A stretch of DNA of 53,403 bases, taken from Hydrurus foetidus (lineage: Eukaryota). Of the stretch, positions 14,269 through 52,700 are shown in pieces (position 1 is the first letter of the stretch; each line of letters opens with the position of its first letter). Location of the stretch: positions 1-53,403 of the forward strand of contig UYFQ01000026.1 in the NCBI GenBank assembly GCA_900617105.1, given 5' to 3'. The notes below the pieces were generated by a model. It saw only the letters and a list, made by a program, of their open reading frames with translations, was not told the DNA's origin and searched no databases. The position numbers and the translations under genes were made by a program.

Positions 14269-14274
14269 GGAGTC

Positions 14275-16486: not shown

Positions 16487-16685
16487 CTACCCCTTCTTCC
16501 TTTTTGAAGATCTTTGAAGATATTTGATTTGATATACAGAAAATATGAGATGAAACGAATGTCATTTATACTGATATAGATGAAACGAAGACCCGTAGGT
16601 TTTACTGACTAAACTCTCCAAAAAAGACCCGTAGGTAAAAAAAATAGGAGAGAATCCTCATGGATAAAGTTTCAAATATATTAAG

Positions 16686-17340: not shown

Positions 17341-18990
17341 CGATCACTGTGATTAAATTTAAAATTCGTTGCACAAATCCGTGACGTTTTATAATTTCTA
17401 GTGTGACATTATCATGTTAGCACGAAGAGTCTATTTCTTTATTCATGCGCGAACTGTGATATTTAGAGCCTTGGTCGACAATGACGTTTTAATAATAATC
17501 TTAATACGTTCTGAAGTGTGGCATACAGAACGGATGTATATCAAACTTTTTAGCCGAAGTAGCAAGAGATTTTGCTGTTGAAAGTGCTGTAAGATTCTGT
17601 ATGAAACAGTTCAACCATCTTGTGATAATATCGATTTGTTGTACGCCGTATGGGAACGGTCAATCTATGTAAGGCCCAGAGAATTTAGAAATAGCAATAT
17701 GAATGATGATTTAACATATTTGATTCTGACAACACGACAAGTGACTGCCACGGAGAGATTATTGCCAAATATCTTTTTCAAGGAGGAAAGTGCGCTCACC
17801 GAAATCCCCGATCAATTGTGCTACTTTACATGTGGACCTCAGGCATCGATGTGAAACTGTATGAGGAAGTCCATCAATAGAAGCTTGATCTCCTAGTCAG
17901 TTGGGCGTTCTCAGAAATTATCAGGCTGCATTTCCTTGTGTATTATTCATTTTAAATGAACCATATTCCAATAAGCTCACCACATCCGTGATCTCCTTTT
18001 GATTTGAACTTGACCATCATTGGACACAAAATAATATGATCTGCAGGCACAGAAGTTTGAGTTTCGAGAGAACGATGACAACTTTTTGTGCCACCCAACG
18101 ACTGAGCTTTGTTAAGATTCGCCTATCTCTTTCCGAAAAGTACCTCTAGTGGCAGTGTGCTTGGCGGATCACTTTGCACGTCCTGATTTTGAAAGATTTC
18201 ATCACATTCCTGCTCTGAGATCATCTATTGTCCATTATATTCATATCTCATGGTTAAACCTGAGGTAAGTTATAGAGCGTCCATGTCTTGAAGCTAATCG
18301 CCATCCATACCTCTTGAGTTGTCCTTCCACTGGTGGAATACGGAACAGTCTTGTTCGTCTCGTTATCAGCAGTGTCGGTAATTAGGCAACCTACACTTAT
18401 TCGCGTTTAAGGCAGCGTCACTGTTGAAACGACAAACATCGTGAATATTCCGATGTCGGACCCCAATCCCATGCATGGGAAGTATAGATATCATCAACCA
18501 CAGACGTGTCTCTAACGCAGGGTTTAGTCATTCTTCGGTGTCAGCACAAACAAGTCGCGTTGTGAACTTGCGTCTTCGGATCAGAAGTCTATGATCAGGT
18601 CGGTCATAGTGCGATCCAAGCGCATGTGCAACGGTGTCTCTAACGTCATGTCCGCATTCAGGTATCGCCACTGATGTAACTACCGCCATCGGCGCTCACT
18701 ATGTGCAGCGATCGTAGCAGGGTGAACACGGCGCTGGTCACAAGGTAAGTGAGACAGGTGTCATAAAGGCTCTTGTCCTGCTGGTCGCCCCTGTACCAGC
18801 CTGGTTGTGCTTGATGAAGCTTCCGTCTGGGTTGTTCTTTTGCTTCAAAAATATGCAAGATCTGATTGTTGATGCCCTCTGCATCGCTGACAGCTTAACT
18901 ACCATGACCGGCACCCGATACTCGCTTGTCGATCACTCTGCTTCAGCTCCGAGACGATGACTTTCTTGGCTTCGTCACCTCGTGACGTGG
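17341..18990. other. Garbled mosaic junction, probably unpolished or misassembled consensus
   Basis: Indel-riddled patches match 24660-25400, then both 10800-11100 and 3470-3770, then 11240-11650 with rising identity. Confidence 0.75.
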
Positions 18991-19378
18991 AATGCCTCCT
19001 TGACGCTGATGTTCGCCGTATTGCTCTTGCTCAGCTCGTCCTTGTGGCGCTTCAGCACCTCTTCCACATCGTGCGTCGACGCCGCTGTGCTCTTTGTACT
19101 CGCTGCTGCGCTTCCGTCATCCGTTACGAATGCACCCTCGCTCGTGTGTGATGATCGAGTCACCATTCGCTCGGTGGGTGCAGGCACCCTGCGTTGCTCT
19201 CTTGCTGCCGGATGCACTGGTTGTGCCGTGTCCGCTGCCGCTGGTTCGCTGTCTGGTGCGGATGCGTCGTCGGGAATGTCACTCGGAAGTGCCGGTTCGT
19301 GAGGCGGTGTGGGTGGTGTAAGTACGTCTTGTCCGTGCACCCCAATTGCCTCGATTTCCTCTGGTACTGCTGCCGTGT

Positions 19379-20872
19379 CTACTGCCGCTGGTACCCCCCC
19401 CTCCACATCGCAGGGAGGAATCTCGAGAATGTTATCGGCAGATGGTAGGTCGAGGAGGGTTGGTGGATCCTGCACCGATCGTTTGTCGATCCTGTCATCC
19501 TGAGTGGGGGGTTGGTAATGAAGGTTGGCAAGTTAGATTTGTCGAGGCTGTTGGTGAACAGCAGTTCATCAAACACATGCAATTTCGTTTGTGTGATTAT
19601 CTCCCCTTCGCAGACTGCCATGGCGTTCAGGGTCATGATGACTGACTGAGGCATCGGCAGTATCTTGAACTGGTTCCGCGTGACGATCTTGCCAGTAGCG
19701 AGTGATAGCATCTTGAACGAGCCAGTCCTGTTATGAGATGGTAGCATGACAACGCAATCTTCAGTACGCGACGACATTGTGTTGTCAGTGTTAGATACTG
19801 TACAGACGGCGTAATCCCCGAATGCTGCGCGGAAGTCCAGGTTCCCGTCAACCCGCCGTCCTGAGAAGAGTTCCCTCGGAGACAGACCCCCTGGTCTTGA
19901 TCCTGACTGCTGGCAGTTGATACGTGATACGCAGAATAGTGCAAGGTAGATTAGACATAGTTCATTCGGAGTGAATGGCAGTCTACCGTTGATGTGGGCG
20001 CGTATTCGCTCCTTCACCATCTGGATGCGTCGCTCGATTCTCGCCACGTGACCTCCAGCTGCACTGACATCAACCTTGATTCCAAGTGCCATCAGCTCCA
20101 CCCTCATTTTGCCGATAGCCTCTTCCCCGTCCGACATGATGACATGTACCAGGAAATTCCTGGATTTCAGGACCGATATCATCTCATTCAGTGCAGGCTG
20201 TACCACTGCCGCTGCACGTAAGGTTTTTGCACTGTCAAGTCGAATGAGACTCACGGCGAGAGTCATGTCAAGTGGGGTTGATACAGCAATAAGTATTGCA
20301 GTGGTCTCCAAGTACATGATATCTACACTCAGCACTTGTTGCTGTTGAGCTGACGCAGGTGTCAGGGAAATGTCCGCGACGGGCGATGATTTCTTGTGCG
20401 TCTTCCCACGCATGCTGGCGAGACACTTCCCCCAGATAGTATGGGCGTTCCTGAAATCGGCCTCCGACACTCTGAAGTTGTTCCCACCGCGAATCATCGC
20501 GATCGCCATCTCGACTGGCGGGTATCCCATACGCGCTATCAGCTCCCTGACTGCTGCTGCTGACGCTATCTCACGTTTCGTGAACCTCATCAAATTCTCT
20601 CTGACGGTGGCGACTAGCGCTTGCTCGACGGTGTTGCGATGCGGCTCGAGTTCTGCCATGCCGCTCGCATCGCACACGTAGAATCGTCCAGTTGATCCTG
20701 GCAGATCCTGCCTACTGAAGCGGTATGTCGTCCTGCTGCCCGAAGCACCCCGACGCATGGTGGTACTGGATGTTGGCTCCACTGTCAACCATCGCTGCAA
20801 ACGATAAGATGTTGGCAGTTGCTCCTCTGCTGTAATAGACAGGGCCGATCTCGCCGAAGTTACCCTCTTCAT
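19379..20872 (-). CDS. pol: Copia A integrase (duplicate copy, frameshifted at a G run ~19505)
   Basis: Near-identical to the N-terminal part of 10101-13535. Confidence 0.85.
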   Translation of the reverse strand: MKRVTSARSALSITAEEQLPTSYRLQRWLTVEPTSSTTMRRGASGSRTTYRFSRQDLPGSTGRFYVCDASGMAELEPHRNTVEQALVATVRENLMRFTKREIASAAAVRELIARMGYPPVEMAIAMIRGGNNFRVSEADFRNAHTIWGKCLASMRGKTHKKSSPVADISLTPASAQQQQVLSVDIMYLETTAILIAVSTPLDMTLAVSLIRLDSAKTLRAAAVVQPALNEMISVLKSRNFLVHVIMSDGEEAIGKMRVELMALGIKVDVSAAGGHVARIERRIQMVKERIRAHINGRLPFTPNELCLIYLALFCVSRINCQQSGSRPGGLSPRELFSGRRVDGNLDFRAAFGDYAVCTVSNTDNTMSSRTEDCVVMLPSHNRTGSFKMLSLATGKIVTRNQFKILPMPQSVIMTLNAMAVCEGEIITQTKLHVFDELLFTNSLDKSNLPTFITNPPLRMTGSTNDRCRIHQPSSTYHLPITFSRFLPAMWRGGYQRQ

Positions 20873-21605
20873 CTACTCTAACTCCCTTAGCTCCGAGCTG
20901 GACTCCGTCAAGGAGGATCGAATGCTGCGATTTCCTGATGCCTGTCAGGAGGCTCGGATTGCAGAAGATGTTGACGGACGCCTGGTTGTCCAGCAACACA
21001 TGGCTCCTCGTGAACAGTGCCACTTCGTTCGTCGTGACGAACACCGCTTCGAAGCTCTCGTCATCCTCGTCGATCTCGCCTTCTGCGCCTGTGAGCATAG
21101 CGTGCTCCCCGACCTTGCGTTCATCGCAGTCTTTCGCGTAGTGGCCAGTCTTTCCACATACGAAGCATGTCACCGTCGAGGCTTTCTTCTTTGCGACAGG
21201 AGTCTTGCCTTTCGCGCCTTTTCCTGCGACTTTTTCCTTTGTTCCAACCGGGGTGTCGGTCAGGAACGCGGAATGTTGCTCGGCGCCAAGGGGGACTCCT
21301 CCGCCGGCGTTCGTCCAAGATGACGCAACCCTGTATGCTCCGGCTAAGGTGGAAGGGTAGCTGTTTGGTATGTTTTGTACGGCGCTGTTACGCATATATG
21401 TCAACATACCGGTATACCTTTTCGGGTCTAGCTTACTGAGGAAGTCGATGGCTCTCATCGGTTCTTCCACCACAGCCATGCCTACACCCTTGTTGGCTAA
21501 AACCTGATTGTCGAATCTCGTTTTGAAATCCCCGATTATCTCACGCTCACCCTGTGTGAGGTAGTTATACCTCAGTGTCTGTTCGTGGACGTTTACTGCT
21601 CTCAT
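20712..21605 (-). CDS. gag: Copia A gag C-terminal part and protease (copy 2)
   Basis: Same protein as 13375-14268. Confidence 0.88.
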   Translation of the reverse strand: MRAVNVHEQTLRYNYLTQGEREIIGDFKTRFDNQVLANKGVGMAVVEEPMRAIDFLSKLDPKRYTGMLTYMRNSAVQNIPNSYPSTLAGAYRVASSWTNAGGGVPLGAEQHSAFLTDTPVGTKEKVAGKGAKGKTPVAKKKASTVTCFVCGKTGHYAKDCDERKVGEHAMLTGAEGEIDEDDESFEAVFVTTNEVALFTRSHVLLDNQASVNIFCNPSLLTGIRKSQHSILLDGVQLGAKGVRVDEEGNFGEIGPVYYSRGATANILSFAAMVDSGANIQYHHASGCFGQQDDIPLQ

Positions 21606-22180
21606 GGAGTCTATGCTGGATCACGGCTTCGACGAACTGGTCGAAGATGAAACGTTGATTGTCCAGTTGGGCAGATTGGCGCAACTGGAGATCCTGTCAG
21701 ACGGATTGGACTGAACAAGGGATTTGGCTGACTCAAAGGAGTCGAAGTCGGTTTTGGTTTGTAGTAACGGTAGTTAATTAGATGTGAAAGGAGTGTGAGA
21801 TTAGCTACGATGAAGTGTGTCTCGAGTTGAAGTTGTCGAACAGTCAGAAACCGAAAACTGGTCCGAAAAACTACGAGTGACGTGGATTGTGTATGTACAT
21901 ACGTGTGAGCAATGTGTGGTAACGAATGTAACACCACCCTCTTCTCGGGTGAAATGTATTATAGGTGAAAACCGCAAAGCTGGAGGTACGAAATGTTTGT
22001 TAGGGTTGCTGTGACGTCATTACTTTTTTTTACTGGATGAAAAAAACGGAAAAACAAAAAACTAACTGACAGTTGTGAGTGATAAATACATTGTTCGAAT
22101 TCACATGAGATGCATAATTTAATAAGCAGCATACACTGCACACTGCGCAACATACTGCACAACACACTACACAACAGACC

Positions 22181-22819
22181 ATGAAAGACGAATTCAAGAA
22201 ATCAAAGAATTTGTGCATGGCGGCGGCGATGGTTTTGCCGTTGTCAGCGCAACAACAGAGGTGGATGAGAGTAGGTGGTGATGCAGGCAACGCGTTCAAG
22301 AAGTCACTAGGGAAAGAGAAAGATGATGGGCTATTATATGGTGCATCTGCTGAGGACGCTGTAACGTATTTGAAGTATGTTTGTGCGAGTAACAAGAAAC
22401 GGGGAATTAAATTGAAATATGAGTTCCGGAGAGTTACGGGGAGGCATGGGAAGATTCGTAGATGGACTGCACACTCAATTCCGAGTACAATTTTGGAGAA
22501 GAAAGGCATTTACGTGATATTTGGAAAATCGAAATGGGCGAATGCTATTCACGCGGCACTTATGAAGAGGATCAAGAAAGCGAGTTGCGTAGGTGAAGAG
22601 CTGGAGATATACAGCAAGGTGGCTCAGGGGATGAGCAGGAAATATCATGCAATGAGCATTCGTAATGATGAAAATGGTGTGAGACTGTTTGATAATGCAT
22701 GCACTAACGGTAGCGTTGAGTTTAGTATTGAGAACTTGGCGGGTAAAATGATTGATTTGACTAACTGTTATTATTTTGATTTGTGTGAGAAGGTGAAGAA
22801 AACGAAGATAATTAAATAG
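22181..22819 (+). CDS. Antisense cargo ORF in gypsy B (copy 2), 212 aa
   Basis: Same as 14844-15482 except Q40K and N47K. Confidence 0.7.
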   Translation: MKDEFKKSKNLCMAAAMVLPLSAQQQRWMRVGGDAGNAFKKSLGKEKDDGLLYGASAEDAVTYLKYVCASNKKRGIKLKYEFRRVTGRHGKIRRWTAHSIPSTILEKKGIYVIFGKSKWANAIHAALMKRIKKASCVGEELEIYSKVAQGMSRKYHAMSIRNDENGVRLFDNACTNGSVEFSIENLAGKMIDLTNCYYFDLCEKVKKTKIIK

Positions 22820-22987
22820 AGTTTTTATTAGGGGGCGAACCCACATTTTGAATGCCGTCCTCACATAATAGCTTCAACTATTGCTACAATGAGTGGGAAA
22901 AGGAATGTGGGCAAGCCTCAGACGTGTTCACAAAGTCGGAGAATTTCAGCTTGATTATGATGGAGCGATTTTTTGAAGGTAAGTTTT

Positions 22988-23554
22988 TTATTTGTATTGT
23001 GTTGGAATGATATTCGACATGTTGTTGTTGTTGAGGTAGTCGTGTACAACAGACACTCTCTTCATTTCAGCCCATGGTTCCCATGAATCATGTGCTGAGG
23101 AATAGTTGTGCCAACGGATTAGGAACTCGAGCGACGATACTTTTTGGGATTGCCACGGTGAGTGATAACCAAATCGACGATATATTCATCATGGTCTATT
23201 AGTGCTGCTGTTTCTGCATCGGTTTTTGAACCAATGAATGGCGTCACTCTACTTGAGTGAAGTATTGAGATGATGTTTGTAACGACATGTCGGCAGTTGA
23301 TATCGTTTTTTGATTGTTTTATCACTTCGTATGGTCCGAGGAGTTTCGGAGAAAGCTTACTGGATCGTAGGGATTGCGGAGTCTCTAATGGATTCCATAG
23401 TATGTAATCTCCAGGTTGGTATGTGTTGTGCGAAGTAGGAGGCGTGTTTAATTGACGTTTACGGCGTAGCGATTCTTGATATAAACTAGTTATTGATCGT
23501 ACGATTGCTAGGTTGCGATCAAGAGCTGTTACAAGATCACAATACGTGTGACCT
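22988..23554 (-). CDS. Gypsy B integrase C-terminus and chromodomain (copy 2)
   Basis: Same as 15651-16217; continues from 29288 (PLLPG|HTYCD) after removing gypsy C. Confidence 0.88.
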
Positions 23555-24012
23555 TGTGGTCTGACGGCGGGGCCTAGGACGGGAGGCGAAGTTGGAGAAG
23601 GCGGAGGACGGAAGGCGTGGGCAAACGAAGGCAAAGTCGAGAGTCGGTGGAATAGACTTGTGTTAGTATCTTACAGTTGAGTATATACAAGTGATGTGTA
23701 CGCTAAGTGCATTCACGTCATATGTGGAACTAAGACCTAAAAGTGGAATCTGAGCGTAATATACCTATTGTACCTAGTTAACCTAGACACATTGTATTCC
23801 CTTAGGAATGCAATAAGGCTACACTACCCCTTCTTCCTTTTTTGAAGATCTTTGATTTGATATACAGAAAAAAAGAGATATGTAAAACATATATATGAGA
23901 TATAGATGAAACGATTATGTCAGACTTTTACTGACTAAACTCTCCAAAAAAGACCCGTAGGTAAAAAAAAATAGGAGAGAATCCTCATGGATAAAGTTTC
24001 AAATATATTAAG

Positions 24013-27000
24013 TCATCGATGTTGCTTATTGATTAATTTAGTCATGTTATTATGACGTAAATAATCATGAAGTTTATCAACATCACGAAGATTTGAATAA
24101 GGTTCCCAAGTGTTTTTGTCTGAAGGGTAATTTAACCATTTGACTAAAAACTCTATGTGGGTACGTTGGTGTTTGCCACGATGATCAAGAATGTCTTCAA
24201 CAAAGTATTCCATGTGATCACGTCGTGCAACATCCAACGGATTTGTGATTGAAGGGTCAAATAGAAAAGGTTTCATTGCAGAAACATGAAACTCTGAAGT
24301 TTTCTGAGTGACTAAATCATAAAGTGTGTAACGCGAATTTTCGCCACTAACGACTTTTAATGGGCCTCTCCAATGCGTGTGAAGACGTGAAGGAGGGATC
24401 CATCGCGATAGTGCACTAAGACATAAGAGTCTTTTGGATAATCTACATGCTGAAAAACTTGAGACTGACTTTGATGAAGCAAATCTGTGCGAAGAAGTTC
24501 TTTAGCAGAAGCTTTAAGAAGACTGTCTTGCGTTTTGAGTAGATTGCTCATACGCTTTGACAAAGGTTTGTCATCAGTAACATTTCGCTCAGCAGGAGGT
24601 AAAAAGATACCTCTATCGAGTTTTAGTACATTTCCGAAAAGAAGTTGAGAAGATGATATTTTTAAACGATCACTGTGATTAGAATTTAAAATTCGTTGCA
24701 CAAATGGAAGTGACGTTTTATAATCTTCTAGTGTGACATTATCGAATGTTAATGCACGAAGATGTCTATTAACTTCTTTATTCATGCGCTCAACAATAGC
24801 ATTTTCTTCTTTAGAGTATGCTAAAGTAAGACAATGTTGAGTGCCAATAAGAGTTAGAAACTCTCTAATAACTTCGGAAATGAAGTGTGGCCCATTATCA
24901 GAACGGAGTTGGAGAGGTGCGCCGAAACGACCGAAGTGTTGCAAGAGGCATTTAGCTGTTGAAAGTGCTGTAGCATCTTCTGTATGAAACAGTTCAACCC
25001 ATCTTGTGAACGTATCGATAATTACGAGTACGTACCCGCCGTCTGGAAACGGTCCTATGAAGTCTATGTTAAGGCATTCCATAGGTGTGTAAGTAGAAGT
25101 TGAGAAACCATGAGCATGTATTGGTATCTTTAACATACTCATTTTCTGACAACACGAACAGTGATCTATGAACCACCTGACGTGCTGACGCATATATTGC
25201 CATACTATCTTTTTGTCAATGAGACGCTTTAAAGTGCGCTCAAGGCCAAAATGCCCAACTTGTGAATTGTGTACTTTACTGATTGTATTGTACTGATCAC
25301 GTGTTAGAATTTTCAATAGTATTAGCAGACATGATTGCATCAGGAGTATATTCCTGAGGGAAATCAACCATGTTATTGCGACAGAGTCGAGACATCGAAT
25401 CAGCTATATCATTGTTAGCACCAGGTATATATTCAATTTTAAATGAATATTCGGATAAGGCCATAAACCACCGAACAATCATTGGATTTGAATTATCCTT
25501 GATGTATAACAAGTTACGATGATCTGTACGCAATGTGAACGTACGATCACGTAATAGCGATTTTAAATACGTGCACGAATAAAAGATAGCATATGCTTCT
25601 TTTTGTATAACAGCCCAACGAAGCTGAGCTTTGTTAAGTGATTTACTGACAAATGCTATGGGCGTTTCTTGACCGTCAACTAGCTGTAAAAATAGGCACC
25701 TACACCATAGTCCGATGCATCAGTGTGCAAGTAAATCGGATCGGTGTCACTTAAAAAGTGCATAGTCGTGCATTTTGAAATCTCGGATTTGATCAAATTG
25801 AATGCTCTGAGAGCTTCTATTGTCCAAGTTATTTTCTTATACTTATTATAGTTAAGAAGCAACTGATGTAACGGGTATACAACAGTAGAAGCGTTTCTAA
25901 CAAAGTCGTGAAAATAATTAACCAATCCTAAAAAACTTTTGAGTTGTTTAGATAGTACTGGTTTAGGAAAATCTAAGACAGTCCGTATTTTTTCTTGTGA
26001 CATTCTAAGTCCATCTGCAGATAGAACTTTGCCAACATAATCTATTTCGGCATAGCCTAGATAACACTTATTCGGTTTAAGGAATATTTTGTGTTTTCTA
26101 AATCGATCAAACACAAGACGAAGTCTAGAAATAAGTTCGTCAATGTCTTTACCGAAAACATTGCAATCATCTATGTACATTTCGCATATAGAGTATATCA
26201 GCCCTGCTAACACAACAGTCGTCATAATCTGTTGGAAATAGGAGGGAGCTTGTTTAGGCCCAAAGGGTAAACGAGTGAATTGATATACTCCGCAGAAAAG
26301 TATGAATGCAGTATAAGCACGTGCAGCAAGTGTAAGTGGTGCTTGATGGTAACCTTGAGTGAGGTCAAGTACAGCAAACACTTTTGCTTTATGTGCACCT
26401 ATTCTACGCAACATCTCACCGATGTGTGGAATAGGATGTGATTTATCTTCGGTACAATTGTTGAGATTCCGAAAATCAATACACATGCGCTTAGTTCCAT
26501 CAGATTTTGGAACTAGCAAAACTTGGCTATAATAAGCCGCGTTCGATTTTTCAACAATATTTTGTTTTTCAAGTTTTTTATTTGACTGAGAATGTCAGCT
26601 TGATCAACTGTTGATTTAGCCCATGGAGGTTGTCTATTTTAGGAACTCTCCATTGGTCGTCATTGACATGAAAGTCAAAGGGTGGAATATCAGCAGGAGT
26701 GGCCGAAAGTTCACTGCTAAATATATCCTTGAATTCGTGTACTAGTAACCGAAGTTTATTTTTCTGATCTTCATCACCTGCTAAGTTTATTAGCGAGAGT
26801 GGGTCAGTATCAGGAAATTCATCTATCCAAGGTGAAAACGAGTCCTTGATCGAGTCGTCGATTTCGTCCTCATCAGGGGGCACAGCCTCAAAAAGTCTTT
26901 CAGACTCTTGTATTAGTGAAGCTAGAATAACATGTGTTTGGGTTACTGCCGGTTTCACCTTTTGGGTTAAAGGATCGACCTTTGGGGAGCCATCAGAGGG

Positions 27001-28912: not shown

Positions 28913-29014
28913 AACTTTGACGTGATGGTTTAAGTTGGAGGAGTCGAAGACAAAAAGTCGGAAAAGAGAAAAACTTTCTCGGAGGAAACTTCGGTGAAGA
29001 CCGAATATCGATAT

Positions 29015-29283
29015 TGTGGTCTGACGGCGGGGCCTAGGACGGGAGGCGAAGTTGGAGAAGGCGGAGGACGGAAGGCGTGGGCAAACGAAGGCAAAGTCGA
29101 GAGTCGGTGGAATAGACTTGTTTTAGTATCTTACAGTTGAGTATATACAAGTGATGTGTACGCTAAGTGCATTCACGTCATATGTGGAACTAAGACCTAA
29201 AAGTGGAATCTGAGCGTAATATACCTATTGTACCTAGTTAACCTAGACACATTGTATTCCCTTAGGAATGCAATAAGGCTACA
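29015..29283 (-). repeat. Gypsy C 5' LTR
   Basis: Matches 23555-23823; followed on + by TSD ACCT. Confidence 0.95.
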
Positions 29284-34175: not shown

Positions 34176-34385
34176 AGTTGAGGAAAGAGAAGAGATTTGT
34201 AGACTTTTTTTCTTCTTCTTTTTTGAGTGGCCTTGCGGGCTTATAAGATTGAGACTGAACTTACCTCAGAGATCTAAATTCCCGCTGAGCCAGGGCGATC
34301 ACTGCTTTCTGGCGGATAGGAAATGAATCAACTGAGGAGAGTCGATATTTCAAACGTTGTCTCGTGTAAACTAGAAATATATATT

Positions 34386-34707
34386 TATGCTGGATCACGG
34401 CTTCGACGAACTGGTCGAAGATGAAACGTTGATTGTCCAGTTGGGCAGATTGGCGCAACTGGAGATCCTGTCAGACGGATTGGACTGAACAAGGGATTTG
34501 GCTGACTCAAAGGAGTCGAAGTCGGTTTTGGTTTGTAGTAACGGTAGTTAATTAGATGTGAAAGGAGTGTGAGATTAGCTACGATGAAGTGTGTCTCGAG
34601 TTGAAGTTGTCGAACAGTCAGAAACCGAAAACTGGTCCGAAAAACTACGAGTGACGTGGATTGTGTATGTACATACGTGTGAGCAATGTGTGGTAACGAA
34701 TGTAACA
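34386..34707 (-). repeat. Gypsy B 5' LTR
   Basis: Same sequence as 21612-21933; element-sense ends TGTTAC..AGCATA. Confidence 0.93.
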
Positions 34708-34711
34708 AGTC

Positions 34712-35269
34712 GTCTTCTCCGTAGATATGCGTCAGGTTGCTCCTGCGGATGTAATGCCACAGTTGCACACTGTCCAATCTGAGGCGGCATGCCTCGAATC
34801 CTGGCGCCTCTCGAACCTTGGATTTGGACCCAGCCGACATCCTTGACCACATTAGTGGAAAAAGCTGGGTCTCCATTGCCTTGCGGCGTCATTCGAACGC
34901 ATTGGCTCTCAATTTGTCGATGAGTGCCTCTGGGAACACGACAGGAGCCTGCTCGGGGAGCTGTGGCCCGATCATAATATTTTCGAGTTCTACGGACCCG
35001 TCTTCGTCTTCCTCCCCGTCTTCGTTTTCGATACCCGCTGTCGAAGCATCGGTCTCCACCGTCTGAAAGGTGGGGTTGTAATCCTCCTCACAAGCATACG
35101 GTTGGACGTAGCTCTTGTTGGTGCTAAAGAACATGCCGGTCATACCGTACAGGCCGCATGCCTCGTTCTGCATTTCTTCCTTCCACTGCACAACGTTGTT
35201 GTGGCGTCCGATCTTCAGCATACACTGCTCTGCACCTGATTTTGGTTCTTCTTGCTTCTTTGGCGGCAT
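34712..35269 (-). CDS. gag: Copia A gag N-terminal part
   Basis: MPPKKQEE.. starts 26 bp after the 5' LTR; an in-frame stop at 34889 is followed by LFPLMWSRMS..HIYGEDD, which joins SMRAVN across the gypsy B insertion. Confidence 0.85.
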
Positions 35270-35294
35270 CTCGATGCGCTAATTAGTTTAATTC

Positions 35295-35611
35295 TGTTGG
35301 GGATTCTCTGAATCCGGATGCTTTGCACTCGTGGCGACCGGTGACCCAAGGCTCGTAAAATAGACTTGTATTGCGTAATTACTTGAGAATTAAACTTGTG
35401 CGCCGGCATCAATCAAGACGGCAACGAAGCTTTACATTTCAACGCAATTGCACATGGTCATCCGTGTTGAAGATAGATGAATGGGTGGCTACACTAGCCC
35501 ACACATCCAACGGTCCACGGTCCTCACCACTGGGGTGCCCACCGCTGACCGTCGGGATCCATGCATACGCTATACAACTACAGCAGTGTCTTTTCTCCGG
35601 ATATTCCAACA
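35295..35611 (-). repeat. Copia A 5' LTR
   Basis: Matches 9595-9911; followed by TSD GTGTA. Confidence 0.95.
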
Positions 35612-36387
35612 GTGTACAGGGGTGGGTCCAGATTAAACGTGGACCTAGAGTACTCGAGGAGCCTTGATCTCTGATCTCTTGATCTGCCAGTAGTAGATAT
35701 TGATATCCTTCCTTATTGATTCTGTTCTCTCTTGACTGCTGTATGCGATGTCTCCTATTCTACTGCTTCTGGTGGCGCGCAACTTGAGGTACAAAGCGTC
35801 AATACGTAGCATAGCGACCATCCACAGTAACATATTCTCTCGACATAACACCCTCAGACAATGAGACAGATATTACATAGGCAAAGCTATCCCATATCTA
35901 GAATCGAAGCTCGTGCATCAATTTTTTGACTGCCTCTTCTCGATAGCAGTTAATGTGATCAGATTGCATTTGATCCGATCACACACTGTGCGGAGAAAGA
36001 ATGAGATAGTATGTGAGAAGAACAAATCTGACTGAGAGTGCCAGTTGTAGTCTAGACTGATCTCGACCGACTCTAGCCTGCTCCAACTGGCTCAGGAGAA
36101 TCCAGTAGCGCGGCACTATTGGCGAAGTCATACTGCAGATGGGCTGCTATGCTGTCTAGTGAGTCAGCAGTTAACCACTACACTAACAGCAGTGATTGAA
36201 TATTTTTCAGAAAGTAGTGCACTGTGGACAGTAGCACCGTCACAACATATTTCAGTCTTACTCAAACTATCATTGTCTGGATGCTTCACACAATCTTCTT
36301 TATTGTGCCAATCTTATTCATCAGCGATATCAACTCTCCATCATATTCTTTTTGAGTAGTTAATTTACTACATGACTTGCAACATGT

Positions 36388-40860: not shown

Positions 40861-41486
40861 GGTAGGGTAACAGGTAGTTTTCAGACCGCAAAAGGTGACG
40901 CGGACGAATATACAGTGCCGCTTTCAGGATCCATGATGTGATAGTGATATCAACAGATACGTAATCTAGTGGCTCTACCAACCTCACGACCTCTCTCATG
41001 CGGCTGTGATGCGGTCCTGAAATAAGAAAATGACGCAACCGATTGAGAGTCTTCTGACGCTACGAATTATTTCACGGTGTTAAATTCTGTGCAATCTTGG
41101 CGATGAAGACTCTCGAATTTTAAGGCATAATTTGACATTCACCTGAAGTTATTGATATCATAACTACGGGTTGATCACTTTGAACGAGGCCCTCAGGAAC
41201 CTGACTGGTAGTTTGATGAAGACTGGAAATTTCTGTGCTCAAGAAAACAGGCATCCACAGCAGGAGAATAGACGTCGCATCGAAAAATCTGCTACACATG
41301 GCGAAGAAGCGGAAGCACTTGGACTTCAGTTTCACGTTTCAGCTCCAGGTTACAAAAACATGATGCCAACGACACTATTGTGAAACAGACAGAAGATTTG
41401 AGATAAAGGAGAATCCAACATGTTGTGGTGAGCGGGTTGGGAAAAGGACTCCAGGAACTGGGCAGCGCAGTCTTGGAGTAATTAAT

Positions 41487-44400
41487 TGTTCCGGTTAACC
41501 GTGAAAACACCCTTGAATATCCAGGCAATTGATGCAATTAGCCTATCTCAAATCTGTTGATATTCGTGTTTCTGTTGCAATTCCTTTGCTACTGTAAGAT
41601 AAACTCCTGTTTATTCCTCACAAGCCTTCGAATCCAGTAGGCGCTACTTGTATCTTGATCTCGAAGTGTAGTACTTGGAAGTAAGCTGGAAGCTTATTTA
41701 GTTGAAACAAAGAAATATACCAGTTGCAACAATTACGACATAAAAGCAAGCTGTATATTCCTACTGCAACGGCAACGTGTGCGTCTTTCTCAATCAGTTG
41801 TGAATCATTCAGATGTGTGCTGTGCAACTATATTGATTCCACTTCAAGTATCATGGATCACATCACAGAAGGTTCTTGGACCCAAGTCCTCCTGAACATA
41901 CCCCCTGATGTGGACCACCGATCGACAACTGAAAATTGACTATCTAATACTGAAATGAATAAAATTGACTGGCCCTGAAAAGTTTTAACGGCCCTGAAAA
42001 TATTTTAACGGCATTCGAAACCTTGACAGACTTCGTCATACTCAAATCGAAATGCTCCTATCGAAAGACATATTTCACCACAATTTAACCCATCAAAAGC
42101 CCGGTGAGCTTTCCTAACAGGGCACCATGTAGGGTTTTCGTCAAAGTGTCCGCGACCATGTCTCCTGTGGGCAGATATTCAACTTTGATCTCGTTGGCTT
42201 CGATGTAGCTGGTAATGAAGAAATATCTGTTCTTGATGTGCCTTGTGCGTTCGCTTGTGGACTTTCCCTTATTCACTAGGCAAATTGTTAACTTGTTGTC
42301 TTGATACACGATCGCAGGTCCAACTCGAACGCCTTGGTGAATAATGTACTCCCTCGTCCAAAGTATCTGTGAAAGAGCATCCGAGAGAGCAACCAGCTCT
42401 GACTCGGTGGATGACCGGGTAACTATTTTCTGCTTTGCACTTTTCACATAAACTGTTGCGTTATCGATCATGACGACTACTCCAGTCACTGACCTCATGT
42501 CATCATATGTACCGAAGGACGCATCCATGTACGCCCGCACCGTGGTATCCGGTCCAATTCAGAGAGTCAGTGTCTTGTGTGGGGTTGCTAGGAGATACCC
42601 CAAGATTCTATTTAGCTTGGCCTCGTCGTCTCTATCTGGCCCTAAAATTCTTGTTGCGCAGTAAGACACTGCTGTCAAGATGTCGCCACGGATTCTCTTG
42701 GCAAGGTAATGCAACTCAATTACACACGAATGGAACCATTGCCTTTTTACATCTCCCAACTTTTCGCATTCTGAGTTTGTTTGGAAGAGCATCTCAGTGG
42801 CCGGTGTCTTTGCTTTCTTTGACCGCATACTTTTCTAATATATTATTGACATACCCTTTCATGGATAGGACCACTGTTCGATGTGCTGTAAAATCCCAGT
42901 GGATACCCAAAAAGTCGTGCTCAGTACCTACTTTCAGGGTGACTTCTTTGTACATTTCCTTGAGTGCATTGGCAATGGAAACAAGAGTATCCGTAGACTT
43001 CGAGGTGAGCATGAGGTCGTCCACGTAGACTAGTATGGTATCAGTGCAACCTGTTTGATGTCTCACGAATGAGCACTCATCATAGGGATTCTTTTTAAAC
43101 CCCAGGTTCTCCAGCGTGCCGGAGAGTTCCTTGTACCACAGGACAGCTGATTCTATGCAGCCGTAAAGTGCTTTGCGAAGTCGCACAATGATCGAACCAT
43201 CGGCTCGAACGTATTTTGCATGGCGCGGAGATACGCGGTACAACAAGCTAGCCACCTCTTTCCCGATGCTCATCTCGACCACGTGTCCAACCATCGTGGC
43301 ATTGAGGTACGCAACTTTGTGATCGAGTGTCATGACGTTGTATCCTCTGTCTGCTGCCAATGCTGCTGTCATCAAAACTGAAGAGAGTGCGACTGTCGGT
43401 GATGATGTTTCATGATCTGTGTACAATGATCTGTCCTGGCGACGGCCTCCTGCTACTAGCCTAGCTTTCATTCGATCGATGTTCCCATTTGGTAATTTCT
43501 TCGGCGTTAAAGATATTTTTGATGGTATTTGTGACCTCATTTTATAATCTCGATGCTGGAACTCGAATACATCTTTCTTAATACAATTCTCGATTTCTTC
43601 TACTATCGCAGCATCTGCCACCTCGTCACCATAGAGCCTCTTCGCTTCCTTTATTGAGAAGGTGGCATACACGTGTTGATCTGTAGTTGTCTTCCTCAGG
43701 TTGTACCCATTGTCGAAAGTGTTTCTCGCAAGAGTATCTTCATCTGATTGCTGTGTATCTTCGATTACATCCTCGATTGTAACTAAACTGTTTCCTTTCT
43801 CGCCGATATTGTTTTCTTCCAAAACTTCTTGGTCAACTTCGACAGGAATTCTGAGTGGAAGTGCCTCATTAGATTGGGGTGTCGTTGATTCTTCGAATGG
43901 AATCAAATCGCTGTCTGAGATCGTCTCAGCGGGTACAGGAGTCATCTGGGCGACTTCTGGCATTATGGTCTCTTCTTCAGTGTCTTGTACTTCATCTACC
44001 CCCCGATCTGGATCCAGAGGGTATCATGTGTCGGGATTGAGCAGTGGTGGTTCTTCTATGACAACTGCTGCAGAAACTGGATGACTCGCCATTGCCTTGA
44101 GTATTTTAATCGCATCTTCTGTCAAAGGAGCCACGCGGAACGTGTCGCCAGTGATTTACCTGAGTGTCGCCAGACTAAGGCACCTGTGAGTTCCTTTCTG
44201 GTTTCGGGTTGTTCCGAGCCAAAGACAGTAGTCAGCTCTAGGGCGGCTGTGTTGGTTAGTGGGCCCGGTGCTTTCTGCAGGAATCCTGCAGTTCCAAAAG
44301 GATACGGAGCATCCAACTTGCAATTTGGCACTCTGCCTCTAAAGGAAGTGTACGCTGGGGTGTGACCAGGCGAGTTTGCTTTTGGGACCATATTGGACAG

Positions 44401-47144
44401 ATGAACGACAAAAGCGATCAGAGCTGCCGTCAACTTTGTCGGAAGAGGAAAAGGCAGGCTGTGTAGGGTGCAGCGAGCCTTATTCTTGACATGCCTAATT
44501 GCAGCTTCTGCATGTGGGGCATGGGAACCGTGGCCAAGGATGTTGAGATCAATATCGAGATTCTCAACGTCTCTACGAACTATCTTCACTGCTCCTTCGC
44601 CGTCGGATGTGAAGCCTTTTGAGAGATGCTGTTGTATGTGCAGAAGCAGAGCTTGTCCTGTAAGTGGACGTGATTTCTCATTGTGACTTCCGATTGATTT
44701 TTCTATCCCAGGTCCTAGATGTGTGACCATTATCAGCCCGAGGATGACGGATATGCTGAGGAAGAAAGTCTGCCCCAAGAAGTAGAACAGATCGACCTGT
44801 AGTTCCTGAGCTACTGAATCGTGCAGTGGAATTCTGTCATCACCGCGTGTCTTCGTTTTCAAGTGAGTACCTTGACCCAGTTGATACGCTGCAGGCGTTC
44901 GGTATATGTCTTGAGCAATCACAAGGTCAGACCTTGTGAACGGAATGTCTTTCGTGCTGCCTCGCTGAATGAACTCTGCCGCAGCTTTATAACTGATGTA
45001 TCCCATTCGTTGAATAAACTCGTAGGCGAGATGATAGCTAGCGAGCTGCTTCGCAGAGTACTTGAATGCTTTGGGGTTTATCGCGATAGCGTAGGCGTGG
45101 GCGACTTTCGCGAGGTCCAGCACGTAATGTCCGTTTGCACAATGTAAGGTGTGAGTTGAACCGCTAGTGGGAACAGCACTGAATGTGTCAGTGTGTGAGT
45201 TATATTGAATCACGTGTGTATCGAGCAGCTTGTGGTAACTGATTATATTCGCTGACATGTGTGGACTGAAGTAACATTTTAGACCGATGTCTGTGACGGT
45301 AGCCTCCATGTGAACCCTGACTCGATCTCCCGTGATACCCTGTCCGATGATTAGGTTGTCGGCTGTGTGCATGTCACTGACAATGCTCCGATTTCGGACG
45401 ATGTGGATACTGGACTGCGTGTCTAGTAGGATGATTGTGTCTTGATCATTAGTAACATTGGACAAGAACACGTTAGAGACGTTATCCTCGAGTTTGACCT
45501 CCATCTCGCGGCTGCATGTTTCGACGGATGAGTAAAATGTTGCCTCATCTTCATCGATGGCGTCGGTGAAATGGACGCTTTTCACCGTGCAAACTGAAGC
45601 CCGATGTCCCTTCCTCTTACATCTCCAGCAGACGATTTCACTTGGGGTTATGGGACCCTGTACCACTGTACGACCTTCTCGGCCGTCTTTATTCCCGCGG
45701 TCACCACGGTCATTACGGCCACCTCGACCTCCACACGCTTCTCCCTTTCCTCCCTCTACTTTATCGTCTGTTTGGGAGCAATAGACACTCTCCAGGTTGC
45801 CGCCACCAGTGCCACGGAAACGGATGATTTGGGCATCTTTGACCTCTCGCCAGAGTGTTGCGCTTGCAGCTGGGAGATCCGCAATTCCTCTGCGCTCGTT
45901 ATCAAAGTAATCTCTGGCGAGCTGGGCATACCGGGACATATCGAGCCTATTAAGGATTCCAACGACTAACTCCTCCTCCGGGATAACAGCTAATCCGACT
46001 GCTAGTCTTTCAAGTTGATGATCTTCGACTCGTTTGCGAAATGCAAAACTCGTTTCGTGTTGGAACATTCGGAGGCTAGCCCATGCTGTTTGGACCCGCT
46101 CTCTGTCTTGTCCCGGATTGCCGCTCTGTCGTGCAATATGAGTGGCACGTATTCTAGAGATGAGGAACAGGAGATCCCGCTCTAAGAATGCGGTTGGCCA
46201 GTCCTCGTCATCTTGTACCTCGCCTCTCGAGGATTCACTTAATTGTGAGTAGACCAAGGCGAATACTGCTAACTTCTGCTCTTTTATTTTCTTCGACTCC
46301 GATTTCCAATCCTTATGATCATTCTGATATTCTGATAGGACTGCTTTTCCAACATTCCCTGCTGGTATGTCTTCTGGCATGAGGGGCTCTTCGTCCTCCT
46401 CGCCGTACTCAGGAGGAGTTGACCAGAAAGCACGGCAAATGGATGGCTTGTAATTGATTGCGACATGCTCGCCCATCGTTTGCATGAAATCTATGGGCTT
46501 ATTTTCCTTCGCTGAGGCGCCGAAGTTTAAGCTGGGCAGCTCTGCATTACTGCCACGGAATTTGGGTTCTTTTTCCGTCTTTGCTTGAGCCTCTGGAGAA
46601 GACCTCCCGCGGCCAGCTCACCTTGCTTGGCCTCTCGGCCCTTGTCTATTTCCGCGTCCAGACATGGATTCGATCTGAGATTCTCTCTCACTTATATAAT
46701 CTTGGCAAATGCTCTTTGCTAGATGATATATATTTCTTTGTGTTCCGGTTAACCGTGAAAACACCCTTGAATATCCAGGCAATTGATGCAATTAGCCTAT
46801 CTGTTGATATTCGTGTTTCTGTTGCAATTCCTTTGCTACTGTAAGATAAACTCCTGTTTATTCCTCACAAGCCTTCGAGTCCAGTAGGTGCTACTGTATC
46901 TTGATCTCGAAGTGTAGTACTTGGAAGTAAGCTGGAAGCTTGTTTAGTTGAAACAAAGAAATATACCAGTTGCAACAATTACGACATATAAGCAAGCTGT
47001 ATATTCCTACTGCAACGGCAACGTGTGCGTCTTTCTCAATCAGTTGTGAATCATTCAGATGTGTGCTGTGCAACTATATTGATTCCACTTCAAGTATCAT
47101 GGATCACATCACAAAAGGTTCTTGGACCCAAGTCCTCCTGAACA
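41487..47144 (-). mobile_element. Ty1/copia LTR retrotransposon D (full length, decayed, no matching TSD)
   Basis: LTRs 41487-41898 and 46741-47144 (TGTTC..GAACA, several substitutions and a 7-bp indel); G-rich PPT next to the 3' LTR; gag-PR-IN 44122-46485 (CWRCKRKGHRASVC, LLDTQSS, QVDLF, SDGEG); RT 42794-43963 (KARLVAGG, YVDD); RNase H 42085-42540. Confidence 0.94.
42085..46485 (-). pseudogene. gag-pol: Copia D gag-pol, split by frameshifts and stops
   Basis: ORFs 44122-46485, 42794-43963, 42559-42828 and 42085-42540 carry successive copia domains. Confidence 0.9.
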
Positions 47145-47318
47145 CAAAGCACCTTCCTACAGTATTCCCGTCGATAAGTCATGGGATATCGACGGTGTCA
47201 AATCGGTTTGCCAACAGTTTTGACGGAGCGAAGCGAAGTAAACTGTGGCAGAAGAGAGAGCATTCTTCGTATCGTCTCTGGTCTCGGTGCTGTAAAACTG
47301 TCGTTACTTTCGACCAAA

Positions 47319-48410
47319 ATGAAGTTCAACATCATTTACGAGGATTCGTCAGGTGCTTCGGAAAAGTTTGTCGCTTCCATAACTGATTACTTAAAAATTG
47401 AATATGATCAGTTGCTTCAAGGCCGCAAAATGAGTAATCTCTTTTTAAAAGACACTGACACAAAGATGTGGATTCGCATCCCTTCCATTAAAGTACTGCG
47501 CTGTCTCTTGTCAGCTGTCAGTGATGAAGTAGCAGCTGTATCAATCATATTTTCCGAATTAGATGTGTCGCCAAATCAATCTCGTCAATCCAGCCCTGGA
47601 AGTGGAGAAAATCCAGATGAAATTGACGACTTTTCTCATCGCGTGTCTAGAATGCGATTGGATTTTAAAGATGAATCAACGCTTGGCGGGAGGTCTGCTG
47701 CCAACTCGTTGGAACCTTTCACTATGAATAATGTGTCGGACATATTGGCGCAGGAGTTACTGATTCTTCCTGATGACGATGATCCTGAAATGACCATAAG
47801 AATTCATGCGCCCTCACTTTTGGTGCACATAAGAAGCGAAGTGTTTGACGGCACGCATATATACGACATAACGGTACAAGCCCAGTCAGAGAGCAAAATG
47901 TTGAAAACTACTTTGAAAAAGAATATATGGACTACTTACTTATTAAGAGTGAACGGTTGTTCAGATATATTTCTGGATTTCATGGCTTCTTCATTAGGAA
48001 ATGTAACTATGCTCGATAGGTCTCTTCTGGAACTACACCAAAAAAGTATCCTATGGAATAAAGTAAAGGTCTTCCATAATGATCTCAAGACGTTTGGACA
48101 AAGCGCAGAAGCTCAGAAGCGTCTAGATGCAGACCCGATGGCATTTTGTTTCATGTCTTCCATTTATTTTACTGAAATTGAGCTGGAATATCTTCATAGT
48201 TTTCCTACTTCGTCAGGGTTAACTTGTAAAGAATATCTAAGTGCTTTGATTGAATCCAAAATTGGTTCCGGAATCAAAAATGCTACATTGTGTACGTCAC
48301 ATGATCTTGCGACCGCCTTTGCCAAAATATACGGGATTCGGAAAGAGTACTCGAAGGATACACAATTCAAGAAATTTTTAAAAGATTTTGGAAAAGTCCG
48401 AAAAGTATAA
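47319..48410 (+). CDS. Intronless ORF of unknown function, ~363 aa (likely start CAAAATG at 47319)
   Basis: Over 1.1 kb of open frame with globular-looking composition and a Ser/acidic linker; no TE motif recognised. Confidence 0.6.
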   Translation: MKFNIIYEDSSGASEKFVASITDYLKIEYDQLLQGRKMSNLFLKDTDTKMWIRIPSIKVLRCLLSAVSDEVAAVSIIFSELDVSPNQSRQSSPGSGENPDEIDDFSHRVSRMRLDFKDESTLGGRSAANSLEPFTMNNVSDILAQELLILPDDDDPEMTIRIHAPSLLVHIRSEVFDGTHIYDITVQAQSESKMLKTTLKKNIWTTYLLRVNGCSDIFLDFMASSLGNVTMLDRSLLELHQKSILWNKVKVFHNDLKTFGQSAEAQKRLDADPMAFCFMSSIYFTEIELEYLHSFPTSSGLTCKEYLSALIESKIGSGIKNATLCTSHDLATAFAKIYGIRKEYSKDTQFKKFLKDFGKVRKV

Positions 48411-48931: not shown

Positions 48932-49259
48932 CACCCCTATGGCGTGAGTCGTCGGGTAGGGGCTATGTGGATGATTAAAACGCAAAGATAAAATTCAAAA
49001 TTGCTCCTTTGACTAGGAGTCATGTATCACAGCATGATGTTTTAGGGTAGGGAGTTAAGGTAATGGTGAGGTTGACCTTTAGGGTGAAGGTAGATACGTT
49101 AGTACACACAGGGTAATATTAGTATCGTACGTTCTGGCTGAAACCGTACGAGCAGTAGAGTTAAACAATGCGGGAGTGATTTTATAGTCAAACAATAGTA
49201 TGCTATAAAAATCCTCTCAGCTTTCTGATTGATTAAAGTGATCGAATCTGAATTTCGAT

Positions 49260-49470
49260 CCAGGGTCCAGTCCAGAGTCCTCGCTCCATATAAATCCGAT
49301 TCAGGGTCCAGGGTCCTCGCTCCTGATGTTTGCTCCATGGCTCTCGCTCCATGGTACTCCTCGCTCCGATATCTCGCTCCATGGTGTCCTAGCTCCAAAT
49401 TCTCGCTCCAGTGTGGGGTTCTCTCAGATTCCGGGTCCGGGGTCCTTGGGTCAGGATCCTCTCGCAGTGG
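49260..49470. repeat. Cluster of short repeats (CTCGCTCC about 6 times; GGGTCC units) in copia E 3' non-coding region
   Basis: CTCGCTCC at ~49280, 49316, 49343, 49359, 49373 and 49402. Confidence 0.7.
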
Positions 49471-49704
49471 GGTGTGGGCACGTCTTGTCCGTGTTGTCCG
49501 TACGTACGTCTCCTGATAGTGCGCGCAGCAGTCGGGTAGTAGGTAAAGAAGGATGGGCAGCAGTAATGTTGGAAGGGCAGCAGAAATGACGGGGGTAGCA
49601 GATCGGACGGGAAGTGGCAGTAGGTATGACAGGGCAGCAGTAGGTGTAGCAGTCATGACAGGGGCAACAGGGGTGGTCGATTCGATGGTGTGAATCGGCC
49701 GGGT

Positions 49705-52700
49705 TTAATTTCTCTTCTTGACTCCTCGTTGAGTCGTTGTAGGTTTAGATGGGTAGGGGAAGTTGGGGTTGAAGTTGGCTTTTGTTCGTGAGTAAGTCAC
49801 GGTGCTGTTGGCGCTATCCTCAGTCTTGCAGCCTTCTGCGTAGGTGACGGATGGGGTGGTGGTGTTTAATAGCTCCTTCCTGAGCTTACGGAATAGTTCC
49901 CCTTGTAGTGGCTTGGTTAGGATATCAGCTGTCATGTCTTGTAGTAGGTAGGTATTGAATGTCGATGTCTCCGGTGCTCAGTCTGTCGTGTAAGAAGAAG
50001 TACCGTATGTCGATATGGCGCGTACGTTCGCTGTTCGAACGTCCGTTCCGAATCAGCTGTATGGTAGACTGGTTGTCTTGATGGATTAGTGCAGGTGGTT
50101 GGTGGTGTCCTTGACAGTGTAGGAAGTTTCGTGTCCATAGCACTTGGTTGGCGGAGTCGCTAAGTGCAACGAGCTCGGCTTCCGTGCTTGATTTGGTCAT
50201 CAAGCGCTGTGTGCCGCTCTTGGCGTAAATCGCTCCCTTTCCCAGGGTAATTACGCAACCTGTGTGGCTTTTCATATCGGGATGTATGGCGAAGGATGCA
50301 TCGACATATGCAATCACATGTATAGGTTCATGTGCTTCAAATGTTACACCCAAGTTCTGGGTATCCCGTATGTACTGTACCGTACGGATCAACTTATTAT
50401 AGTCGTCCCTTTGGGGCTTAGTCACTCTCTTGGTCAGGAACGCTACGGCTGTCAGAATATCTGGCCTCGTCCTCTTGCTCAGATAGAGTAGCTTCGCTGT
50501 AATAGAATGGAAACGCTCACGCAAGTTGTCGGGTAAGGGTGAGTCACATTCGTTAGGTACAGTGAATAGGTTAGATTGTGCAGGTGTGTTAGCCTTGCCA
50601 GGCATATCCTTACACCCCTCGATGAGGTCTTGCACAAATCCCTCCATAGTCATCTTGACTCTGCCTGCCTTAGTAAAGTCAAATGTCATACCTATATAGT
50701 TTAAAACTTTGCCGCGGTGTTTAGTTAGACCGGGGTATATAGTTTCAATTTGCTGAATAACATCGTCAACGCGAGATTCATTTGAAGCAGTGATAATCAT
50801 ATCATCAACATGAATTACGAGTGAGGTTTGTGTGTTATCTGATTCAGTTCTATTAAACACGCAGATGTCATATTCATTAGCAGTATAATTGAGTTTAATC
50901 AAATCATTGGATAGTTTATCGTACCATAGCTTAGCAGATTCAACGCATCCATATAACGCTTTTTTAAGTTTAACAATACAAGTTCCATTGTTGTTAATGT
51001 ATTTATTGTATGTGGCATCAATATTAATTAGTGCCGCAGTCAGTTGTTTGTTCAGACGCATGTATACAACATGGTCTCCGGTCAGCGGCATATCACTATT
51101 CAGGAATGCACCGGGGAAGTCAACAGTGGCAACAGCACGCTTCTGTCTAGCAGCAATTGCAGTCAGTATGAATACACTAGATGTGCTAGCAGTGGGTGAT
51201 GCGCCGTTATTATAAACGTCTCTATCTTGTAAGTGCCCACCGGCTACTAGTCTAGATTTAAGTTTTTCGAACATGCCATCAGCAGTATACTTTTCTTTCA
51301 AGAACATGCTACTAGGTATAATGGTGCGTTTTTGTTGTGGGGTGAGGGATTCATAAGTTACACCTTCCCAAACATTCTTATCACACATTTGTTTCAATTC
51401 AGATGTAATGGAATCAACAGCTATCACCCCTAACTTATTAATACCTTCATTAACAGTCATTTTGTACAGGTGAGTGTGGTTGTAGAACAGATTACCAACA
51501 TATTTCTTATCCCATTTACCAAGTTGGTGATTTCTACCACTTCTACGTAACACGGGTGAGTTTACAACAGGTGGGTCATATGCGGTTTCAATTATAGTGG
51601 CAGGTGGTGTGAATACTTCAGTGTGTACAGTTACATCAGCAAAGTCGTCTTCATCATCACTTATACCAAATATGTCATCTATCAGTGCTTGATCATATTT
51701 CGGTGTGGGCACATGTGTATCATCATGTGTGTCATCATAATATAGTTGGTCATTGTCATATGTATTGTCATTCACATATAGTGTGTCATCTACGTACTCA
51801 TCTAATGTGGGTGGGTGATTTTCATCAGACATGTCGAGTTGTGATTCAAGATATGTGTCGTTGTCATTGTGATCGTTATCTTCAATAATCTCATCGGTGT
51901 AGTTTGCGTTAGCATTTTCATCGACAGTTTCATATTCGACATCACCAATGTACGCACTATCATCTTCAACATCGTCATCATCGAATACAGTGTGACTACT
52001 ATTCTCAAATACAGGCTGTTTAACATTGGCAGTTTTTCTTTTTGAAGCTAATACATTCAAGTGTAATATTACTTCATCAGGCATGGGTAGTACAGTTGCT
52101 TTAGTACGTTTAACAATACGTTCGTTAGCTAACAGCATATAGTACCATGAACCTTCTAGATTACCGGAGCTCATAAGTGCTATGGCCCCGGCTGTTCTTG
52201 GTTTGGTAGAGTTATCAATGACATCATTATGCACTTGGACATAATCACCAAAACCATGTTTAATCTCCTTATCTACGTCTAACTTTCTTCCGGTTAATTT
52301 TTCTCTCGGACTGATGTGGTTAAGTGAGTTACGTGTGGGAGCTAATACAATTCTACTGACTGCATACTTAACTAACCACACTTCTAATTTCTCGTTTAAT
52401 GAGAATGGTAGAGAATTAATCACTGATCTTACTCTCTCCTTTATGTGTCGTATCTTACGCTCGACTACGGCTACGGCTTCTCCGGCTCCGGTAACGTCTA
52501 ATACTATACCTCTTAAGCCGACTTTGTTGTGAAACCATTCTGTGTTAATTGCACCCTCGCCGTCTACTCGGATCATCTTAACTCTGAATCTGTACTTTAC
52601 CATGCTTGCTAATGAAGTCTTTAAGCTGTTCCATATGCTCTTGTGTTCTCTGTTAGCTAACTTGCTAACGTATAGGAACTCGATAGGCTGAACAACTGAT

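Follow-up and report, generated by a model that had tools for sequence, protein, structure and literature searches.

To our knowledge, self-primed reverse transcription has been proven only in gypsy elements of fission yeast and predicted for one plant copia lineage. Self-priming was shown for Tf1 and inferred for the Tf1/sushi elements (PMC10085805, PMC4600332, PMC5341516; these and the papers below are cited for those parts of their text that were available), and priming in Tf1 needs two extra helices, which gives a three-duplex pretzel (PMC10085805). In Tf1 and Tf2 of Schizosaccharomyces pombe, in Tj1 and in the Tf1/sushi and Tcn1 chromoviruses, the primer site directly follows the 5' LTR and is complementary to that part of the LTR where the RNA is predicted to begin, and the retrotransposon analyzed here, copia A, has the same arrangement. 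Its lineage shares with the Tf1-type Ty3/gypsy elements both the fold-back geometry and the lack of a tRNA match (PMC10085805, PMC4600332, PMC5341516). Unlike the Tf1 group, the copia A lineage belongs to Ty1/copia, and its duplex, of 9-25 bp, is known here from sequence alone.

Within copia, the plant elements Houba and Osr-1 have been proposed to self-prime, a prediction that extends to 89% of 203 TAR elements; the published criterion asks for at least 10 bp of complementarity to the 5' LTR, at a site that starts 0-5 nt beyond its end (PMC6317226). The original prediction had taken self-priming to be unfamiliar in copia; this premise falls because of the TAR survey, and the mechanism is not new for copia, although it is apparently unpublished for the non-plant lineage of copia A. 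Compared by description, the copia A lineage resembles TAR (Houba, Osr-1, Fourf) in being Ty1/copia with predicted self-priming, in duplicating 5 bp of target and in having gag and pol in one ORF, whereas TAR elements were described from plants with a mean length of 6.3 kb (REXdb survey, PMC6317226) and copia A relatives come from environmental assemblies.

Two further groups of copia elements bear comparison. Fungal GalEa elements also have no tRNA primer site, but their site is a palindrome that pairs with a downstream copy and for which no LTR complement was found, whereas the partner of the copia A site lies upstream, inside the LTR (PMC5445492). CoDi elements, again compared by description, are algal (diatom) copia, an affinity at which the diatom-leaning Gag clusters of copia A also hint; the available parts of PMC2806351 and PMC7466962 hold no statement of the CoDi primer type. 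The open-access literature searched gave no account of self-priming in copia of algae or stramenopiles, and none appeared in the accessible text of PMC2806351, PMC7466962 and PMC3601003. In its available part, PMC3601003 suggests that tRNA priming came late, and the copia A lineage bears on whether self-priming is ancestral or was gained repeatedly. Annotation may be affected as well, as pipelines that require a recognized primer site (as described in the available text of PMC7466962) may lose such elements.

Copia A lies on the minus strand of the window, the whole 53,403-nt stretch of DNA that was analyzed. Its two LTRs, at 35611-35295 (5') and 9911-9595 (3'), are 317 bp each with 2 mismatches, end in TG...CA and are flanked by a 5-bp target duplication, GTGTA, at 9590-9594 and 35612-35616. 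A short purine tract ending in GGGTG (9912-9920), the same in many relatives, precedes the 3' LTR, and thus the LTR pair, target duplication and purine tract typical of Ty1/copia are all present. The reverse transcriptase (RT) matches Pfam RVT_2 (about 10827-11510, E 9e-22) and is of Ty1/copia type. Integrase motifs read by eye lie upstream of the RT, and a Pfam search reported no rve match in copia A at 0.001. Copia A is a Ty1/copia LTR retrotransposon, with an RVT_2 RT and integrase before RT. Membership of the Tf1/sushi group was considered and rejected, as it needs a Ty3/gypsy chromovirus polyprotein and the RT here is copia-type.

The coding region of copia A is split by nested insertions. 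The 5' part of gag (34708-35269, minus strand) begins at an ATG at 35269, 25 nt past the LTR, and is cut at 34708 by gypsy B, which has gypsy C inside it; these nested elements and a 7.3-kb duplicated block fill 14275-34707 on the minus strand. The rest of gag (with a zinc knuckle), protease, integrase, RT and RNase H follow at 10059-14274 (minus strand), and the duplicated block carries a second copy of part of the copia A gag-pol. Because of these nested insertions, an in-frame stop in gag (34889-34891) and a change of frame near 13405, this copy is dead. Copia A also sits in a long imperfect palindrome, in which its flanks (9470-9594 and 35612-35680) jointly fold into an ~85-bp hairpin of -58 kcal/mol as DNA; the palindrome is perhaps a MITE or fold-back element.

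The 5' LTR of copia A (35295-35611, minus strand) is followed by GAATTAAACT and by neither TGG nor GGTTATGGG, as the original prediction had noted. The perfect 11-bp inverted repeat that it reported was also confirmed: plus-strand positions 35285-35295 are the exact reverse complement of 35386-35396, enclosing 90 nt, and the primer-binding site so placed (35285-35295, minus strand) includes the last base of the LTR, which is paired. A match of 11 bp arose in 6 of 20,000 dinucleotide shuffles of the copia A LTR, with start offsets of -3 to +3 allowed. Across the window, 15 of 53,075 positions carry an 11-mer that is perfectly complementary to a stretch within the 317 nt before it; the primer-site 11-mer of copia A occurs once in the window and its LTR arm once per LTR. 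With 11 bp of complementarity to its LTR and no tRNA 3'-end site, copia A falls among predicted self-priming elements by the published criterion. ARAGORN found 0 tRNA genes in the window. A 6-nt likeness of the leader to what we take to be a half-tRNA-Ile site was set aside, as it begins 11 nt past the LTR and position 35281 within it differs in relatives.

On the minus strand, the pairing and a start motif together place the predicted U3 of the 5' LTR at ~35611-35398 and R-U5 at ~35397-35295. The predicted transcription start, at 35396-35397, derives from a lineage-wide motif, and the first 11 nt of the RNA (35386-35396), paired in the predicted fold and perfectly complementary to the primer site, would form the self-primer. 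The copia A arm is preceded directly 5' by ACA, in contrast to the usual TCA of the lineage. In the predicted fold of an RNA begun at 35397 the duplex is the outer helix; its predicted mean pair probability is 0.98 in an RNA begun at the arm. The duplex is short and AU-rich (-9.7 kcal/mol), and the overall fold of the region is ordinary (z -1.57). A short hairpin of 6 bp is predicted in U5 just 5' of the primer site (35301-35315, minus strand).

The same geometry recurs in a second element of the window, copia D (RVT_2), also on the minus strand, with its 5' LTR at 46741-47144 and 3' LTR at 41487-41898. Its primer site (46729-46741, minus strand) includes the last base of the LTR and is complementary over 13 bp, or 14 with G-U, to a predicted self-primer in its own 5' LTR (46953-46965, minus strand), a match reached in 2 of 20,000 shuffles. 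The letters of the pairing differ from those of copia A, and the RT-RNase H regions of the two elements are 40% identical. The copia D region has a fold z of -5.3, and with 13 bp and no tRNA 3'-end site copia D is likewise predicted to be self-priming by the published criterion. No CA stands at the start of its arm. Copia D has no matching target duplication (41482-41486 against 47145-47149) and its two LTRs share 96.8% identity and differ by an indel of 8 bp; it may therefore be a recombinant of two copies.

With the copia A RT-RNase H as query, 7,997 candidates were scored, of which 1,624 proteins matched with an E of at most 1e-30. The closest are 89-90% identical to copia A, and 70 of the best 120 are at least 1,450 aa long; polyproteins of relatives run to ~1,500-1,650 aa on environmental-assembly contigs near 5.0-5.7 kb. 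In a metagenome scan, 554 of the first 600 pattern matches were confirmed, and the best 80 of these yielded 79 loci. No relative turned up in three scans of viral contigs or among the 155 pattern matches of a Gag-pattern scan of metagenome contigs, and the closest relatives (P0001-P0071) are therefore known as proteins only; the 79 metagenome loci are more distant from copia A than these. Among the nearest Atlas clusters for Gag the commonest phylum is Bacillariophyta, on just 7 and 6 members with a record, a weak sequence-based suggestion of diatom-leaning Gag look-alikes.

In a quick unrooted tree of 87 rows without named references, copia A stands beside P0002 in a group with support of 97 that also holds the metagenome loci L001, L002, L024 and L025, with duplexes of 10, 10, 9 and 8-10 bp. 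In one of these, L002, the region after RNase H has a GT...AG segment in the 5' leader, and gag is interrupted by a long A+T-rich stretch; both look like introns.

Across the lineage, 48 regions with a CA-anchored duplex of at least 9 bp were gathered, and six were dropped (four without gag, one duplicate family and one mis-paired), leaving 42. These were picked by their duplex, without regard to which motif stood at the arm's far end. The duplexes are 9-25 bp long (median 12.5), enclose loops of 44-491 nt and have arms of 84% A+T. All 42 primer sites are distinct, and none shows TGG within 0-5 nt after the LTR or GGTTATG, the latter motif being taken from the original prediction; priming from a TGG-starting tRNA site or a half-tRNA-Met site was rejected for these elements on this count. 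The last base of the LTR lies within the duplex in 26 of the 42. Predicted folds give the duplex a mean pair probability below 0.8 in seven elements of the 42, near zero in four of them.

The far end of the arm bears on where transcription might start. Under self-priming, pairing should end at +1, as sequence upstream of +1 is untranscribed, and the arm begins at or just after CA in 32/42 elements (background 11%), with TCA in 24/42. This TCA resembles the diatom initiator-like motif TCAH+1W (PMC4686930, in its available part), and the initiator-like CA at the arm start offers indirect support for a predicted start site there. A C follows the duplex in 18/42 elements against 10.4 expected (P 0.007), a post hoc count with the control flank equally C-rich; it would be what a copied cap gives, but the signal is weak and not specific. 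For Tf1-like extra helices, duplex energies of own against foreign pairings fell in the top 5% in 2/40 and 3/40 elements by a crude test that misses short helices, and by this test the three-helix pretzel of Tf1 was not detected as conserved in the copia A lineage.

LTR ends were also called blind to the pairing, from a purine tract plus TG start, a matching terminal 5-mer and a downstream ATG. This gave 42 junctions (40 loci, copia A and copia D); 77 loci had an RNase H match, and 37 of them were skipped. The primer site pairs over at least 9 bp with its own LTR in 26 of the 42 and with foreign LTRs in 27 of 1,722 comparisons. Among the 16 calls below 9 bp, six have a 10-17-bp duplex at another CA, three have a 10-12-bp duplex beginning a few bases off a CA, L018 has 8 bp, L011 on visual reading pairs imperfectly, and five lack a gag match; inspection suggests that most of the 16 are wrongly called LTR ends or ends that lack gag.

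Anchoring on the gag ATG instead allowed 35 elements to be tested (34 loci and copia A), with 43 excluded: 34 without a gag match, five in which the ATG could not be placed and four that were too short. A duplex of at least 9 bp was found in 31/35, with a shuffle p of at most 0.05 in 26/35. The duplex begins at the last base of, or right after, [AT]CA in 24/35, against a background of 241/2,450 (9.8%).

The letters of the duplex also change between close relatives. Three loci with RT-RNase H 85-91% identical (L041, L050 and L051) carry different duplexes of 22, 19 and 25 bp. At single-pair resolution, contigs of close relatives of copia A have C>A at 35294 (depth 49/73 in run X1, 7,148/7,355 in X2 and 7.9/7.9 in X5) and G>T at 35387 (3,391/3,477, 208,620/238,411 and 39/39, in the same order). 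Both partners of one base pair thus differ from the window in these contigs, an arm-C:site-G pair becoming arm-A:site-U; the double change is unphased, as among the contigs listed none bridges both positions. The original prediction had proposed looking for compensatory changes in relatives, and the own-versus-foreign LTR comparison and the unphased change at 35294 and 35387 both point to them, indicating that complementarity is kept across the lineage while its letters change. In runs X1 and X2 the contig depth, summed, is highest at 35366-35422, over the predicted start and primer, at ~10x the rest of the LTR, a hint that this is the most widely shared LTR segment and not a copy number.

These comparisons leave little room for chance in A+T-rich sequence as the source of the 11-bp inverted repeat of copia A. 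The repeat is short and was picked after inspection, but it arose in only 6/20,000 shuffles, and pairing recurs with other letters in copia D and in most testable relatives; the chance reading is refuted by the own-versus-foreign LTR test (26/42 against 27/1,722) and we consider it extremely improbable. A host tRNA fragment or other small RNA could instead be the primer, with the LTR arm a by-product or helper copy, as the Osser, Bryco and Bianca copia use half-tRNAs without TGG (PMC6317226, in its available part). Under this explanation each of the 42 distinct primer sites would need a different host RNA, and these sites are 84% A+T, differ even between elements 85-91% identical in RT and include no TGG or GGTTATG; one base pair varies in close relatives besides. 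A host primer is therefore improbable, if less so than chance.

Somewhat more weight, while still unlikely, goes to a duplex between LTR and leader that is real and selected but structural, serving gag translation, packaging, dimer formation or 5'-end shielding while another primer is used. In those elements of the ATG-anchored test with at least 9 bp, only 1-39 nt separate the end of the duplex from the gag ATG, so that it could act on translation, and in fungal GalEa copia a hairpin is retained where the primer site would be, without a known priming model (PMC5445492, in its available part). Yet nothing would require a structural stem to start precisely where the LTR ends, as 24/35 do, or to stop at an initiator-like CA, as 32/42 do, and no other primer site (TGG or GGTTATG) was seen in the 42 elements.

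We are fairly confident, judging from these sequence comparisons, that copia A is a broken copy of a large non-plant Ty1/copia lineage that likely primes with the 5' end of its own RNA and not with a tRNA. The original prediction's self-priming reading gains from the covariation across the lineage, from copia D, from the unphased double change and from the initiator-like CA, and it stays unproven. The model builds on the complementarity, position and covariation described above. RNA polymerase II would start at the initiator-like CA at 35397/35396, a start site placed by inference. The first 11 nt, whose complementarity is observed, are predicted to fold back in vivo over the 90-nt loop onto the site after the LTR. 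By analogy with Tf1, the RT-RNase H of the element would then nick the RNA at the duplex's inner end, freeing a 3'-OH that points into U5, and in a standard LTR cycle RT would copy ~90-100 nt of U5 and R before transfer to the 3' R. Plus-strand synthesis from the GGGTG tract would presumably copy the primer and rewrite the primer site in each cycle; both arms would then change together and fast, and pairing would stop at the predicted +1. If plus-strand synthesis does copy the primer, a change in the arm would reach the primer site within one cycle. As a second, very diverse self-pairing copia lineage, with natural compensatory changes and a start-like motif at the primer, the copia A group suggests that loss of the tRNA primer is common, and also that the RNase H of a copia element is able to make the cut that priming needs.

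A more specific version of the self-priming model is possible, and we put it forward tentatively, as doubtful on balance: algal (stramenopile-like) copia self-priming may be independent of Tf1 and TAR and use a minimal 9-25-bp duplex without the pretzel, the primer site being a rewritten copy of the capped 5' end that sometimes carries a cap-derived C. If so, every element copy would record its own transcription start site in DNA.

The two gypsy elements nested in copia A show a different arrangement. Gypsy B has LTR copies at 34386-34707, 21612-21933 and 14275-14596, and gypsy C at 29014-29283, 23554-23823 and 16217-16486, all on the minus strand. Tested as for copia A, the primer positions of B and C have an LTR complement of only 3 and 5 bp. 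Both have instead a perfect 12-bp palindrome at the primer position, at 34375-34386 in gypsy B (AAATATATATTT) and 29003-29014 in gypsy C (AATATCGATATT) on the minus strand, that includes the last A of the LTR, and neither element has a tRNA site. These palindromes recall the palindromic first sequence of the hairpin site in fungal GalEa (PMC5445492, in its available part) and could serve priming or pairing between two RNA copies. Gypsy B (14271-14596 and 34386-34711) appears to have TG...TA ends and a 4-bp target duplication, GACT, and gypsy C ends in TG...CA, carries a chromodomain and has a 4-bp duplication, AGGT.

The 7.3-kb tandem duplication spans 10772-17635 and 18122-25019, and differences between the two copies are clustered at both ends, with the middle nearly identical; it is either an artefact of assembling long reads or the product of a recent unequal crossover. 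A third copia, copia E (RVT_2, ~48935-53403), runs past the end of the window, leaving its 5' LTR outside. In the quick unrooted tree it groups with loci L006, L017, L055 and L069, all four of which have self-complementary primer sites. Its 3' LTR is preceded by the same GGGGTG tract, and an array of short TGGAGCGAG repeats lies at ~49260-49440. Between copia D and copia E lies a stop-to-stop ORF of 410 aa (47178-48410, plus strand) with no Pfam match.
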